A stretch of DNA of 64,000 nucleotides, taken from Acidimicrobiales bacterium. Its GTDB lineage: Bacteria; Actinomycetota; Acidimicrobiia; Acidimicrobiales; Bin134. Positions 3,944 to 8,102 of this stretch are shown in pieces; the first letter of the stretch is position 1, and every line of letters starts with the position of its first letter. The position numbers and the translations under genes were made by a program. The notes under the pieces were generated by a model, which worked only from the letters and a program-made list of their open reading frames with translations, had not been told where the DNA came from and did not search any database. The stretch lies in the NCBI GenBank assembly GCA_965208505.1, contig OZ242339.1, forward strand, positions 1,407,715 to 1,471,714, given 5' to 3'.

Positions 3944-4735
3944 CTAGTTCATGCGAGCTCGAGCCAGGGTGGCCAGCCGCTGAAGCTGCTCTTCGTCATC
4001 GTCGCCGGCAACCTGGGCCAACTGCTCGAATCGACGGGCAGCCTCGTCGAATCGACCCCGCTCCATGTTGATCATTCCAAGTTGCCTCGCCTCACCGGCT
4101 GGGACTGATGGGCACATCGTCCGCAGTTCCAGCACCCATTCCAGGTTGGCGTAGTCCTTGTTCTGGGCGTAGATAGCTCGCAGATTTCCCAACATCCGTT
4201 CCATGATCGATGGGTGGTCGACCGGCGCCAAATACGCGGGGTGGAAGCCCTTGTCGCCCCCTGTTAGCTGATGGAAAAGCGTCTCGCAGCCCTGGGCATC
4301 GAGCAGCGCTCCCCCGGCGAACACATCGAAGAACGCGTCGGGCTCGTTGCGATCACGGATCAGAAAGTGGCCGGGCAGTCCGATGCCCTCGAACTTGTAG
4401 CCGGTGCGCTGTCCGATAGCGATAGTGAGCACGGCAAGGCTGATCGGGATGCCGGTGCGCCGGCGCACGACTTCGTTAAGAAATGAGTTGCGAGGGTCGT
4501 AGTATTCCGTTCGATTGCCGTGAAAACCCAGATCGCCGAACAGCGAGAGCAGCATTTGCTCTCGGCTGGAGCGGTCGCATCGCTCAGCCAGCACATCCAA
4601 CCGCTTGAACTCGGCCTCGGCATCCATGCCGGGACACCCATGGGCTGCAATGCACAGCGCGCCCTCATCAAGGGCAAACTCCTCATTCTGAAGCAGCTGG
4701 CTGAACCTCTTGGCTGGCTCCCAATCCACGATCAA
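3944..4735 (-). CDS. SirB1-like transglutaminase-fold / TPR protein (UPF0162-like)
   Basis: 263 aa. The GIPISLAVLTIAIGQRTGYKFEGIGLPGHFLIR core and a C-terminal TPR-like helical region resemble the SirB1 family. Confidence 0.6.
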   Translation of the reverse strand: MIVDWEPAKRFSQLLQNEEFALDEGALCIAAHGCPGMDAEAEFKRLDVLAERCDRSSREQMLLSLFGDLGFHGNRTEYYDPRNSFLNEVVRRRTGIPISLAVLTIAIGQRTGYKFEGIGLPGHFLIRDRNEPDAFFDVFAGGALLDAQGCETLFHQLTGGDKGFHPAYLAPVDHPSIMERMLGNLRAIYAQNKDYANLEWVLELRTMCPSVPAGEARQLGMINMERGRFDEAARRFEQLAQVAGDDDEEQLQRLATLARARMN

Positions 4736-4766
4736 GAAATCTATCTCGGCAGATAGTCTTTCGCCG

Positions 4767-5522
4767 GTGACACTCTGGACGTTCCTCGATCACGATGGCC
4801 CGATTCCCATCGCCCACCGGGGCGGGGCTGCGGAGGGGCCGGAGAACACGATGGCCGCATTCGCCGCGGCCGTGGGTCTCGGCTATCGCTATGTCGAAAC
4901 CGATGTCCACGCCACCCGAGACGGGGTGCTGGTGGCATTCCACGATGAAGGGTTGAAGCGGCTTAGCGGTCGCCCAGAATCTATCGCCGACCTCAACTGG
5001 CGAGACCTCGAAACGGTGCGGGTCGGCGGAGGGCACGCCATCCCCCGCTTCGAGGAACTGTTGGAAGCCTGGCCTGATCTCCGAATAGCGGTTGATCCCA
5101 AGCAAGACAATGCCACCGTCCCGCTGATCGGGGCGCTTCAGCGGGCCGACGCCATTGACCGAGCCTGCGTCGGATCATTCTCCGGCCGCCGGTTGGCCTT
5201 GGCGCGGCGGCTAGGCGGACCTCGGTTATGCACTGGACTCAGCCCCAAAGAAGTCGGGCGGCTCCAAGCCGCCTCAACCGGGCTACCCGTAAAGGTCAAG
5301 GCCGGTGCGTGCGCCCAGGTTCCCCCCACCGCCAAGGGTGTTCCGCTGGTCCACCAGCGATTCGTCGATGCGGCCCACACCCAAGGACTGGCGGTGCACG
5401 TGTGGACTATCGACGAAGCCGACGAGATGAAACGGCTCCTACAACTCGGGGTGGACGGCATCATGACTGATCGGCCCACTGTGTTGCGCGACGTGCTCAT
5501 GGAGCTCGGAGCGTGGAGTTGA
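4767..5522 (+). CDS. Glycerophosphodiester phosphodiesterase (GDPD family)
   Basis: IAHRGGAAEGPENTMAAFAAAVGLGYRYVETDVHATRDGVLVAFHD motif. The track start 4710 overlaps the divergent gene, so the in-frame GTG at 4767 is preferred. Confidence 0.85.
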   Translation: MTLWTFLDHDGPIPIAHRGGAAEGPENTMAAFAAAVGLGYRYVETDVHATRDGVLVAFHDEGLKRLSGRPESIADLNWRDLETVRVGGGHAIPRFEELLEAWPDLRIAVDPKQDNATVPLIGALQRADAIDRACVGSFSGRRLALARRLGGPRLCTGLSPKEVGRLQAASTGLPVKVKAGACAQVPPTAKGVPLVHQRFVDAAHTQGLAVHVWTIDEADEMKRLLQLGVDGIMTDRPTVLRDVLMELGAWS

Positions 5523-5629
5523 GGGGTTCCTTCACGCTCAACATCGACCTTAACCCTGTGGTTAAATCGTGGTTTCTTGGGGATTTCTACTGACACCCGT
5601 GGAAAACCCTGTGGATTTTAGATTTCCGC

Positions 5630-5657
5630 TTGACCTGGCTTTTCTCCGCGCTATGGT
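5630..5657 (+). promoter_or_regulatory. Sigma-A-type promoter candidate: TTGACC, 16 nt spacer, TATGGT
   Basis: TTGACC at 5630-5635 and TATGGT (fits TANNNT) at 5652-5657, in a locally AT-richer stretch upstream of the structured region. Confidence 0.4.
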
Positions 5658-5659
5658 GT

Positions 5660-5905
5660 GCCCACCTACCAGAGACGAGCGGGTTGAACTCGAAAGAGTC
5701 CGCAGGGTCACTGAAACGGACCGAGGAAGTCGGTGGCACCACCGAAAGCCCCGGATCGGGAAGGTGGCCAGGTGCCGCGAGGACTTGGGAGGTAGGTACC
5801 GGGGAACCGGGGGGCGCAAGCCCGCTGAGGCTCCGGAACCGCACGGGACGGCCCCGAGAAGTCGACCGGTTTCGGCCGGGAGGCTACTCGGGGTCTCCTG
5901 CTTTA
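5660..5905 (+). ncRNA. Candidate structured RNA (unclassified): long 5' leader of the hydrolase gene or an independent sRNA
   Basis: About 430 nt non-coding gap. GNRA-capped hairpins occur on the + strand only: ACTC-GAAA-GAGT (5688-5699), ACCGA-GGAAG-TCGGT (5720-5734), CCGG-GGAA-CCGG (5799-5810), GGGC-GCAA-GCCC (5812-5823). A long-range GCAGGG (5703-5708) / CCCTGC (5907-5912) pairing and a 7 bp CCCCGAG (5852-5858) / CTCGGGG (5887-5893) stem followed by TCTCCTGCTTT are also present. Class not recognised. Confidence 0.35.
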
Positions 5906-5952
5906 ACCCTGCACTTCGCAATTCAGCCATTTCCTCTAAGTAGGGTGGCGCC

Positions 5953-6636
5953 GTGAGCGGACCTGCTGTCGCATTGCTGCACGGACTGGCCGGCTCGGCC
6001 CGGAGAACCTGGGGAGACAATGCCTGGTTCGACCTTCTGGCCGACGCCGATCGGGAAGTGATCGGGGTGGACCTCATGGGCCATGGGACCGCCCCCAAGC
6101 CCCACCGTCCCGAGGGTTACGCCGATTTCGAGCAGCACGTCATCGACCACTTCCCCGAAGAGCCCATCGACGCCATCGGGTTCTCACTGGGGGCCTACAC
6201 CTTGTTGTCCATTGCCTCCCAGATGCCCGAGCGATTTCACAGGCTGGTGGTGTCCGGGGTGGGCAAGAACCTGTTCGAGCGAGACGAGGGCCATAGCCGC
6301 ATGATCCTGAACGCGGTTACCGGCGAGCCCGACCCCGAGAACCCCGAGGCCCTCCACTTCTCTACCCTGGCCGACGATCCCGAGGCCGACCGGGAAGCCC
6401 TAGCCGCCCTGATGGCCAGCCGCACCGCCTTTGACACCGATTGCCTGGGCCGTGTCGCCGTCCCCACCCTGGTGGTCGTGGGCGACAAGGACTTCGCCTA
6501 CCCCGCCGATCAGCTCGTGGGTGCCCTCCCCGACGCCCGGCTCGTCATCCTCAAAGGCGTCGACCACTTCGCCACTCCCAAGTCCTTCGACTTCATCGAC
6601 GCCGCCTTGGATTTCCTCGACGCCAAGCCCTTCTAG
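5953..6636 (+). CDS. Alpha/beta-fold hydrolase
   Basis: LLHGLAGS oxyanion region, GFSLG nucleophile elbow, C-terminal VDHF. Confidence 0.8.
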   Translation: MSGPAVALLHGLAGSARRTWGDNAWFDLLADADREVIGVDLMGHGTAPKPHRPEGYADFEQHVIDHFPEEPIDAIGFSLGAYTLLSIASQMPERFHRLVVSGVGKNLFERDEGHSRMILNAVTGEPDPENPEALHFSTLADDPEADREALAALMASRTAFDTDCLGRVAVPTLVVVGDKDFAYPADQLVGALPDARLVILKGVDHFATPKSFDFIDAALDFLDAKPF

Positions 6637-6641
6637 CCGAT

Positions 6642-8102
6642 CTATCGCAGCTGTTGGGCAGTGGGCACCAGGGGTACGGGCAAAAGGGTGTCGCCGGTCA
6701 GGTATTGATCGACGGCCGCGGCGCAGGCTCGTCCCTCGGCGATGGCCCACACGATGAGGCTCTGGCCTCGGCCGATGTCGCCGGCCACGAATACGCCGGG
6801 CACGGTGCTCATCCAGTTGTCCTCGCGGGCCACGTTTCCCCGGTCGGTTATCTCCACCCCCAGGTCATCAAGCAGGCCGCCGGTTTCAGGGCCGGTGAAT
6901 CCGAGGGCCAACAGCACCAAGTCGGCCTGGAACTCTCGTTCGGTTCCCTCAATCGGGTTGAACGTCATCCGACCACCCTCAAACGACTGCTGCACGTCAA
7001 TCGTGTGCAGTGCCTCCACCTTGCCGCCAGATCCGGTGAACTCCACGGTGTTGATGGCGTAGATCTGGGTACCGCCCTCCTCGTGGGCCGACGACGACCG
7101 GTACATGAGCGGCCAGGTCGGCCACGGGGTGGCGCCGGCCCGCTCATCAGGGGGGCGGGGCAATATCTCGAACTGGTGGATGGACGCCGCCCCATGGCGG
7201 TGGGCGGTGCCCAGGCAGTCGGCGCCGGTATCGCCCCCGCCGATTATGATCACATGCTTGCCAGCGGCTGAGAACGGGTGCTCGTCCAAGTCGCCCTCCT
7301 GTACCCGGTTGGACGGAGGCAGGTACTCCATCGCCTGATAGATGCCCTCCAGCTCCCGGCCGGGAATGGGCAGGTCCCGCCACTGGGTAGCCCCCCCGGC
7401 CAGCACCACTGCGTCGTAGTGACCGGTGAGCTCAGCAGCGCTGATGTCGACCCCCACGTTCACCCCAGCCTTGAACACCGTGCCCTCGGCCTCCATCTGG
7501 GCCAGCCGGCGGTCGAGGTGGCGCTTTTCCATCTTGAACTCGGGGATGCCGTAGCGCAGAAGCCCGCCAATGCGGTCGGCCCGCTCGAACACCACCACAT
7601 CGTGGCCCGCCCGAGTGAGCTGTTGGGCGGCGGCCAGCCCGGCCGGTCCCGACCCCACCACTGCCACCGAGCGGCCAGTGCGGTCGTCGCACACCACCGG
7701 GGTGATCCACCCCTCTCCCCAGGCCCGGTCCACGATCTCCACCTCGACCTGCTTGATGGTCACCGGGTCCTCGTTGATGCCCAGCACGCACGCCGCCTCA
7801 CACGGCGCCGGGCACAGCCTCCCGGTGAACTCGGGAAAGTTGTTGGTGGCGTGCAGCCGCTCGATGGCCTCGCGCCAGTGGTCCCTGTAGACGAGGTCGT
7901 TCCAGTCGGGGATCAGGTTGCCCAGCGGGCAGCCGTTGTTGCAGAAAGGGATGCCGCAGTCCATGCAGCGCGACGCCTGGGTGCGCACCGATTCGGCGTC
8001 GAAGTCCTTGTAGACCTCGTGCCAGTCTTTGATTCGCACCGGCACGGGACGGCGCACCGGCAGCTCCCGGCCGTGCTTGATGAACCCCCGAATATCACCC
8101 AT
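6642..8102 (-). CDS. gltD: Glutamate synthase small (beta) subunit, NADPH-dependent
   Basis: [10 protein letters not shown]..., Cys clusters CMDCGIPFC and [19 protein letters not shown] dinucleotide fold. Start moved to the ATG at 8102, which overlaps the gltB stop by 8 nt. Confidence 0.95.

Follow-up and report, generated by a model that had tools for sequence, protein, structure and literature searches.

A probable uncatalogued family of structured RNA genes in the Acidimicrobiales, with DnaA-box-like repeats next to the promoter

The stretch of interest is 64,000 nucleotides (nt) of DNA (hereafter, the window) from the single-contig, 96.8% complete genome of an Acidimicrobiales bacterium; coordinates are window positions unless another scale is given. 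Between the stop codon of a GDPD gene (5522) and the GTG start codon of an alpha/beta hydrolase gene (5953) lies a gap of 430 nt, and this gap carries a free-standing gene: a conserved, single-copy, strand-specific structured RNA with a conserved operator, independent of the genes on either side. We consider it very probable that this is a real RNA gene and that its family is uncatalogued. Judged by sequence and model matches, members of the family are distributed across the order Acidimicrobiales, and weaker relatives are found in other parts of the class and phylum. The main parts of the unit are as follows:

5553–5629, + strand: conserved control region, just upstream of the -35 element
5630–5657, + strand: promoter, with -35 element TTGACC (5630–5635), a 16-nt spacer and -10 element TATGGT (5652–5657)
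About 5664–5905, + strand: predicted transcript of about 245 nt, with both ends predicted
5844–5900, + strand: 3' hairpin, conserved in sequence and pairing, with a core of about 46 nt at 5850–5895

The promoter, which had been pointed out in an earlier note on this DNA, is the sole promoter-like site in 5400–6100 (one found, versus 0.1 expected from shuffles). In an alignment of 20 genomes, the letters TTGAC of the -35 element and TA..GT of the -10 element are invariant, and in other families a TTGAC(C/G) element is found at the equivalent position, followed after 16 to 19 nt by nAnnnT. The promoter appears to be strong and of the near-consensus, primary-sigma type, and its spacing would place the start of transcription near A5664. 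At the other end, conservation within the genus stops with the tail of the 3' hairpin (20-genome alignment). The interval originally proposed for the RNA, 5630–5952, does contain it; however, that interval also takes in the promoter and a non-conserved 3' spacer, and it misses the conserved control region.

A DNA search of 41 relatives recovered the region in 21 of the 24 other genomes of the genus. Conservation begins about 30 nt past the GDPD stop codon and covers four upstream repeats (the boxes described below), the promoter and the RNA. Mean pairwise identities, calculated from 19 genomes of the genus, are as follows:

RNA: 0.90
Promoter: 0.87
Box region: 0.85
Two flanking spacers: 0.57 (adjoining the box region) and 0.52
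Third codon positions of the two neighbouring genes: 0.60–0.70
First and second codon positions of the two neighbouring genes: 0.89–0.96

Conservation in related genomes was among the checks suggested in the earlier note, as was covariation of the hairpins, and the identity of the RNA, 0.90 versus 0.52–0.57 in the spacers, bears it out. The conserved stretch does not encode a protein. Positions 5523–5952 are non-coding: open reading frames over the gap gave no Pfam match, and relatives within the genus differ in the gap by insertions or deletions of 31, 1, 8, 11, 23 and 2 nt, which break all reading frames. A protein-coding reading was rejected on these two grounds, in line with the previous statement that the gap holds no credible open reading frame.

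When folded as RNA, region 5655–5950 reaches -147.7 kcal/mol on the + strand (z = -4.17), a stability attained by none of 200 shuffles, while the - strand gives z = -1.34. The + strand call is therefore sound, and the asymmetry extends to other lineages: in 24 of 24 lineage representatives, folding is stronger on the sense strand (mean z = -5.1) than on the antisense strand (mean z = -1.8). Promoter, folding and conservation together uphold the earlier description of a promoter-driven, + strand structured RNA of about 250 nt.

The most strongly conserved part of the RNA is recognizable well beyond the genus. The base of the 3' hairpin is a GC stem of 9 bp; above it come an A.A mismatch, four further base pairs, the tandem G.A/A.G and, at the top, a covarying apical stem. 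Its tail pairs with 5844–5848, extending the stem, and UUU stands at 5902–5904. The earlier note had described a terminal 7-bp stem followed by a U-rich tail; the stem is real, as the base of the longer hairpin at 5850–5895, but the tail amounts to UUU. Alignment A1, of 65 hairpin sequences, has 87.9% of its cells paired, and in 13 of 22 pairs both partners change; 0 of 500 shuffles reach these values, and controls slid along the sequence are 34–54% paired. Covariation in related sequences, also among the checks suggested, is found for this hairpin. The letters CCGA, AG and UACUCGG are invariant in the 65 sequences, although the search pattern imposed part of this invariance. A covariance model of the hairpin that is free of the original search pattern (R1) finds a single copy in this genome, at 5839–5908, with 76.6 bits. 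The hairpin here has all features of the family: the GC stem, the A.A mismatch, AGY/GCU, the tandem G.A, the apical stem, and the pairing of the tail.

A terminator scan did not call the 3' hairpin. In many families its tail pairs with sequence just upstream of the hairpin, and the tail ends in U's in some lineages and in GCGUCC in others, so that the hairpin is more than a plain intrinsic terminator. It would serve as the 3'-end and stability element and also as a recognition site.

When the RNA was searched by BLAST in 301 genomes of the order, 71 genomes from many families gave matches, mainly to the 3' hairpin. The matched loci share a layout consisting of (i) a TTGAC(C/G) promoter 200–350 nt upstream, (ii) a G-rich, hairpin-rich body, and (iii) the same 3' hairpin. 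The true matches of a pattern scan in named records fall in the Acidimicrobiales/Acidimicrobiia, including Candidatus Poriferisocius, Candidatus Aldehydirespirator, Microthrixaceae and Iamiaceae. Pattern matches in Streptomyces, Micromonospora, Mycobacterium, Pseudomonas and others were rejected as chance, being without the hairpin and in apparent coding regions. Model R1 matches 59 of 151 sampled Acidimicrobiales genomes (50 of 120 genera) and 11 of the 151 genomes in a phylum-wide sample; the latter matches include weaker relatives in sister classes with the same promoter–RNA–hairpin layout. The BLAST tally and both R1 tallies include the unpublished genomes G167, G066 and G462 (the last being the source of locus L173), and no conclusion is drawn from these genomes alone.

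Variants of the unit were also seen. Related promoter–RNA–hairpin units of about 210–230 nt, with variant 3' hairpins, occur in another class of the phylum (L174, L176, L179 and L181) and in other families of the same class (L178 and L180; L178 has two hairpin units). At some of these loci, a GGGGA box abuts the -35 element. Elsewhere, the 3' hairpin module is tandemly repeated downstream of the RNA gene, as partial or whole copies, two to three times; this is seen in the same genus (L003:1494–2006 and L007:1470–2031) and in another family (L034, L037 and L045).

The RNA does not match any catalogued class. A cmscan of 4500–7500, on both strands and with all 4227 Rfam 15 families, returned no match at E <= 1, which agrees with the class having been left unrecognized at first sight and leaves neither the raiA-like candidate nor the riboswitch classes named at that time with a match. 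Ten related loci from other classes likewise gave no Rfam match at E <= 0.1, and a literature search found no description of such an RNA in Acidimicrobiia. A divergent RNase P RNA, signal recognition particle (SRP) RNA or transfer-messenger RNA (tmRNA) was rejected because each of these is present elsewhere in the genome:

972 kb: RNase P RNA (RF00010), 236 bits
3394 kb: SRP RNA (RF00169), 70.8 bits
2109 kb: tmRNA (RF00023), 61.4 bits

Two further groups of regulatory RNA can be set aside with the proteins that they depend on. Like the sponge RNAs RsmX/Y/Z and CsrB/C, the RNA is a chain of hairpins whose number varies by lineage and has a dedicated upstream operator; unlike them, it carries GNRA-type tetraloops rather than repeated GGA motifs, and is present here in single copy. 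CsrA/RsmA (PF02599) was not found in the genome, and a Csr/Rsm sponge was rejected on that account. Hfq (PF17209) was not found in the genome either, and an Hfq-dependent small RNA was rejected in the same way.

The transcript is predicted to consist of three parts in a row, namely a long 5' hairpin, a set of middle hairpins that varies, and the 3' hairpin. Upstream of the last, the elements are as follows:

5665–5797, + strand: 5' domain, one long irregular hairpin in predicted folds
5688–5699, + strand: GAAA-capped hairpin at a variable site, in predicted and consensus folds
5730–5745, + strand: apical hairpin UCGGUG-GCAC-CACCGA, near-invariant in the genus, with an invariant GCAC loop
5799–5842, + strand: middle region of hairpins and linker, in the genus consensus fold
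5799–5810, + strand: hairpin CCGG-GGAA-CCGG, in predicted and consensus folds
5812–5823, + strand: hairpin GGGC-GCAA-GCCC, in predicted and consensus folds

The three tetraloop hairpins first noticed by eye (GAAA, GGAA and GCAA) all reappear in the predicted and consensus folds. A fourth, said to be capped by a GGAAG pentaloop, does not survive in the consensus fold; the stretch instead joins a longer helix that is capped by the GCAC loop at 5730–5745. The 5' domain is closed by a helix, P1, that pairs 5665–5672 with 5784–5797 (core CCAG/CUGG). Inward of P1 lie a purine-rich internal loop (AGAC / GAGGAC) and a second helix, P2 (GCGG/CCGC). Single-sequence folds predict the same 5' architecture in about 20 lineages that differ in sequence, the shared feature being a CCNG/CN'GG closing helix with a purine-rich internal loop. 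The GGCACC motif of the apical hairpin, read by eye, recurs in 5' domains of other families.

We regard the 5' fold as likely, not proven. Within the genus, the consensus fold shows compensatory changes at 9 of 66 pairs, variation there being too small for testing the 5' fold. Between families, a small model-fitted alignment of 10 sequences has 80.3% of cells paired, with 0 of 500 shuffles reaching its covariation score and one P1 pair appearing as AU in four sequences, GC in four and CG in one. On a structure-blind MAFFT alignment, P1 is 57.7% paired versus 53.8% in shuffles (31 of 500 shuffles being as high), and a plain cross-family MAFFT alignment of the 5' domain yields no consensus structure. 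A model of the 5' domain (R2) found only three members beyond its seeds, and did not score the genus sequences.

Other parts of the RNA vary more freely. Most genomes of the genus have a long version of the GAAA-hairpin site; in this genome and its nearest relative the site is shorter by 31 nt, and six genomes of the genus (L014, L020, L024–L026 and L028) lack the hairpin. As read from these sequences, this is the behaviour of a dispensable helix within a structured RNA. The middle hairpins number from one to three, and both their number and their length differ among families.

The earlier note had left two options for the RNA, a leader of the hydrolase gene or a stand-alone small RNA. As a leader, it would act in cis on the alpha/beta hydrolase gene, as a riboswitch or an attenuator, and its 3' hairpin would be the terminator. 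The arrangement at this locus invites such a reading: the RNA is read in the same direction as the hydrolase gene and is placed 48 nt before it, the order GDPD–RNA–hydrolase is retained in 19 of 20 loci of the genus, and the fold resembles large aptamers in size and complexity. Other loci contradict it. At L026, a locus of the same genus, a convergent gltD lies 66 nt past the RNA, and there is no hydrolase gene; at L029, L034 and L037, the hydrolase gene is 730–830 nt from the RNA; and in most other families neither GDPD nor hydrolase is near the RNA, there being no protein gene that is consistently linked to it. Across families, the sequence of the terminator-like hairpin stays conserved no matter which gene comes next; the spacer past it is the least conserved part of the gap (identity 0.37–0.52).

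The hydrolase gene also appears to have a promoter of its own, outside the RNA:

5941–5946 (element 5941–5955), + strand: -10-like TAGGGT, 6 nt before the hydrolase GTG

The sequence TAG(G/T)(G/C)T, then G(A)GCGCC, then the start codon is kept across the genus, and the spacer before it is not. In Actinobacteria, such a distance between -10 element and start codon marks the promoter of a leaderless mRNA, and the hydrolase mRNA is probably leaderless and transcribed from this site. Taken together, these observations favour the stand-alone option and make a hydrolase leader very improbable.

The control region upstream of the promoter contains four repeats, each resembling a DnaA box:

5557, + strand: DnaA-box-like repeat 1, TGTGGTTAA
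5578, + strand: DnaA-box-like repeat 2, TGGGGATTT
5598, + strand: DnaA-box-like repeat 3, CGTGGAAAA
5610, + strand: DnaA-box-like repeat 4, TGTGGATTT

The boxes span 5556–5618 in a single orientation, and match the DnaA consensus TGTGGATAA at 6–8 of 9 positions. Boxes 3 and 4 form a tandem pair, 12 nt apart and about 12 nt upstream of the -35 element. A loose box pattern has five sense matches here (the four boxes and CGTGGT at 5568, which is not conserved in the genus) and no antisense match. Across families, at least two sense-strand boxes occur within 100 nt of the -35 element in 23 of 36 lineage representatives; in the same set, the mean number of boxes upstream of the -35 element is 2.25 on the sense strand versus 0.78 on the antisense strand, the figures inside the RNA body being 0.83 and 0.44. 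A composite, GGAtAACCCTGGGGA, recurs 14–18 nt upstream of the -35 element across the family, and in one lineage the boxes are inverted.

Similar words are found at replication genes of this genome. The spacer between dnaA (at 3.332 Mb) and dnaN, the oriC, has nine boxes of the types CTGGGGA(A/C) and TGTGGAAA beside an AT-rich stretch. Upstream of dnaA there is a perfect TTATCCACA; a tandem pair, TGGGGGATAT then CCTGGGGATTT when read on the reverse strand, precedes dnaB; and one nrd gene has the same boxes ahead of a TTGACG promoter. At the level of sequence, the repeats of the control region resemble the genome's own DnaA boxes at oriC, dnaA and dnaB, and DnaA would be expected to bind them. 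This claim rests on the shared motif and on its conservation rather than on genome-wide statistics, because the cluster scans do not discriminate: a weight matrix built from the nine oriC sites gives 4029 matches genome-wide and does not flag the locus, a regular-expression scan finds 29 clusters versus about 26 expected, and a loose two-box pattern returns mostly coding-region noise. In the regular-expression scan, the locus is the only cluster with four boxes on the same strand.

DnaA-regulated promoters are known from dnaA, nrdAB and other genes in Escherichia coli, and a DnaA-bound region lies upstream of dnaB in Mycobacterium. The promoter described here is like these in having a row of DnaA-box-like 9-mers beside it, with the motif also present at oriC, dnaA and dnaB; it differs in that its product would be a non-coding RNA. 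A literature search found no description of a non-coding RNA driven by a DnaA-box promoter.

Two sites with such boxes in this genome (G000) deserve mention. At G000:C1:909330–909630, DnaA-box-like sites and a TTGACG promoter are followed by a leader of about 230 nt before a ribonucleotide reductase gene (911 aa). At G000:C1:257500–257560, intergenic boxes CTGGGGATT then GGACAACCATGGGGAAG adjoin an apparent tRNA gene end.

Alternatively, the functional element could be the DNA itself: a DnaA-box cluster in the terminus-proximal half of the chromosome, used for titration or reactivation of DnaA, with the transcript secondary. Four phased boxes would suit such a site, and so would its location. 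The RNA gene is 108 kb from the GC-skew maximum (1,304,921) and head-on to the presumed fork; in 11 complete genomes, each with the gene in the terminus-proximal half, its distance from dnaA is 0.27–0.48 genome lengths. As the genomes are related to one another, the trend is weak, and the position relative to dnaA varies widely. The transcribed part is better conserved than the boxes (0.90 versus 0.85) and has the strand-specific structure and covariation of an RNA. A purely DNA-based function is, in our view, highly doubtful.

The GC skew of the genome has a further peculiarity. Its minimum (3,128,878) adjoins dnaB (3.115 Mb) and is about 200 kb from dnaA/oriC (3.333 Mb), and there is a local reversal of the skew between 3.2 and 3.3 Mb. 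The reversal near the origin suggests a rearrangement.

What might the RNA do? How much RNA its promoter yields probably depends on how much of the replication initiator, DnaA, is present, or on the state of that protein. We infer that the RNA acts in trans and is bound by a protein: the most conserved letters sit in helices and an internal loop, and for this reason we read the RNA as being recognized by a protein rather than by base pairing. Most plausibly, it would be the lineage's abundant RNA-polymerase-associated RNA, in place of 6S, Ms1 or CoRP. An RNA-polymerase-associated RNA under DnaA-like control is the reading that we rank first, tentatively and well short of an even chance. It is placed there because (i) 6S RNA (RF00013) was found in 0 of 151 sampled genomes of the order, and (ii) it has been proposed that each bacterium has one abundant RNA-polymerase-associated RNA (6S, Ms1 or CoRP), with further classes awaited (PMC11077062).

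The three known RNAs each share something with the candidate. The part that it would play is that of 6S RNA, which is structured, abundant and transcribed from a strong promoter of its own, and which binds the primary-sigma holoenzyme and templates pRNA. 6S RNA, however, is a single rod in which the two ends pair and a large bubble occupies the middle, while a chain of three hairpin domains is predicted here. An identity with 6S was rejected, given the lack of an RF00013 match and of the rod-with-bubble shape. 6S RNA was not found in this genome, and its absence from all 151 sampled genomes makes a test for complementary distribution uninformative.

Ms1 (Ms1 in Mycobacterium smegmatis, MTS2823 in M. 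tuberculosis and scr3559 in Streptomyces coelicolor) binds the RNA polymerase core (PMC4191392, PMC9130861), is abundant in stationary phase, and is described with extra hairpins at its ends; its conserved neighbours are a HAD-IB hydrolase and an oxidoreductase (PMC9130861). Like Ms1, the RNA is actinobacterial, about 250–300 nt long, highly structured and free-standing, in lineages without detectable 6S; also like Ms1, its sequence is poorly conserved between families, so that homology searches fail. Unlike Ms1, it has no predicted central bubble; nor do the accounts of Ms1 (PMC4191392, PMC9130861) mention a conserved motif in a 3' hairpin or a promoter with DnaA boxes. Likeness to Ms1 was not confirmed, and synteny and description set the RNA apart from it. 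CoRP of Corynebacterium is 516 nt long, binds both the core and the holoenzyme of RNA polymerase, lies between tRNA genes, and is confined to one genus (PMC11077062). It resembles the RNA described here in being a lineage-restricted actinobacterial RNA, and, by filling the 6S/Ms1 niche without resembling either, sets a precedent for further classes. The present RNA is set apart from it by description, having about half the length and no tRNA neighbours.

Several observations weigh against an RNA-polymerase-associated RNA under DnaA-like control. Firstly, the 5' end pairs with sequence about 125 nt downstream rather than with the 3' end, and a large central bubble is absent from the predicted fold. 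Secondly, the synteny that defines Ms1 is absent, the neighbours here being GDPD (PF03009) and Abhydrolase_6/1. Thirdly, the transcript ends, the abundance of the RNA, and its binding by RNA polymerase or another protein are all inferred, and cross-family support for the 5' domain comes from single-sequence folds and the small model-fitted alignment. A search of sequencing runs with a 2-kb query returned three runs of unknown kind, all from a single study, and no RNA run for this DNA. Fourthly, box-like words are common in the genome, and cluster scans single out the locus only by its four same-strand boxes. Finally, model R1 misses about 60% of the sampled genomes of the order, and the family is, given these misses, either patchy or very divergent.

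The protein partner might also be something other than RNA polymerase. The RNA would then be a scaffold or decoy for, say, a nuclease, a chaperone, or a replication or partition protein, with the invariant internal loop of the 3' hairpin as the binding site and the DnaA-like boxes setting its expression. The tandem G.A/A.G and the A.A mismatch are typical protein-recognition features, and paired positions of the 3' hairpin are invariant where any pair would serve; the search pattern imposed this in part, although the pattern-free model R1 recovers the same motif. A modular design would also suit the variable number of middle hairpins. Against this, no candidate partner was found (neither CsrA nor Hfq was found in the genome), and no protein gene keeps company with the RNA. 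We regard such a scaffold as a real but somewhat unlikely possibility.

A further reading is action by base pairing. A small RNA that regulates mRNAs in trans, possibly those of replication or nucleotide-supply genes, would typically come with its own promoter and a terminator-like end, as this one does, and the boxes held in common with dnaA, dnaB and an nrd gene would point to such targets. The RNA, however, is long, almost fully paired and G-rich, and offers no conserved C-rich or anti-Shine-Dalgarno single strand; its most conserved letters are within helices. A blastn-short search for targets or ribosomal RNA mimicry found a best complementarity in the genome of 16 nt (E = 0.19), which is chance level, and Hfq was not found in the genome. 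A base-pairing role is accordingly improbable in our estimation.

To return to the reading that we rank first, a wider form of it can be stated: a class-wide RNA that is set by DnaA and binds RNA polymerase or a replication protein, so coupling the state of initiation to transcription or feeding back on it. This is speculative, and we hold it to be unlikely as stated; were it true, riboregulators would gain a new class, and a DnaA regulon its first known non-coding RNA. If the binding of DnaA is real, replication control would be linked to a non-coding RNA, and we know of no earlier description of such a link.

Acidimicrobiia are abundant in oceans, soils, sludge and sponges, and to our knowledge almost nothing is known of their RNA biology. 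An RNA gene that is conserved to the degree of first and second codon positions, occurs in roughly 40% of sampled genera, and is not in Rfam is a candidate housekeeping regulator. The 3' hairpin model and the promoter layout provide a means of annotating the family and of choosing a cultured carrier.

The genes on either side of the RNA are as follows:

4710–5522: GDPD gene (PF03009), upstream neighbour
5953–6636, + strand: alpha/beta hydrolase gene (Abhydrolase_6/1), GTG start at 5953, downstream neighbour

Just past the GDPD gene, at 5597–5624, the terminator scan calls a weak, G.U-rich hairpin with a T-rich run, overlapping boxes 3 and 4. This hairpin could be due to chance, or could double as the end of the GDPD transcript.

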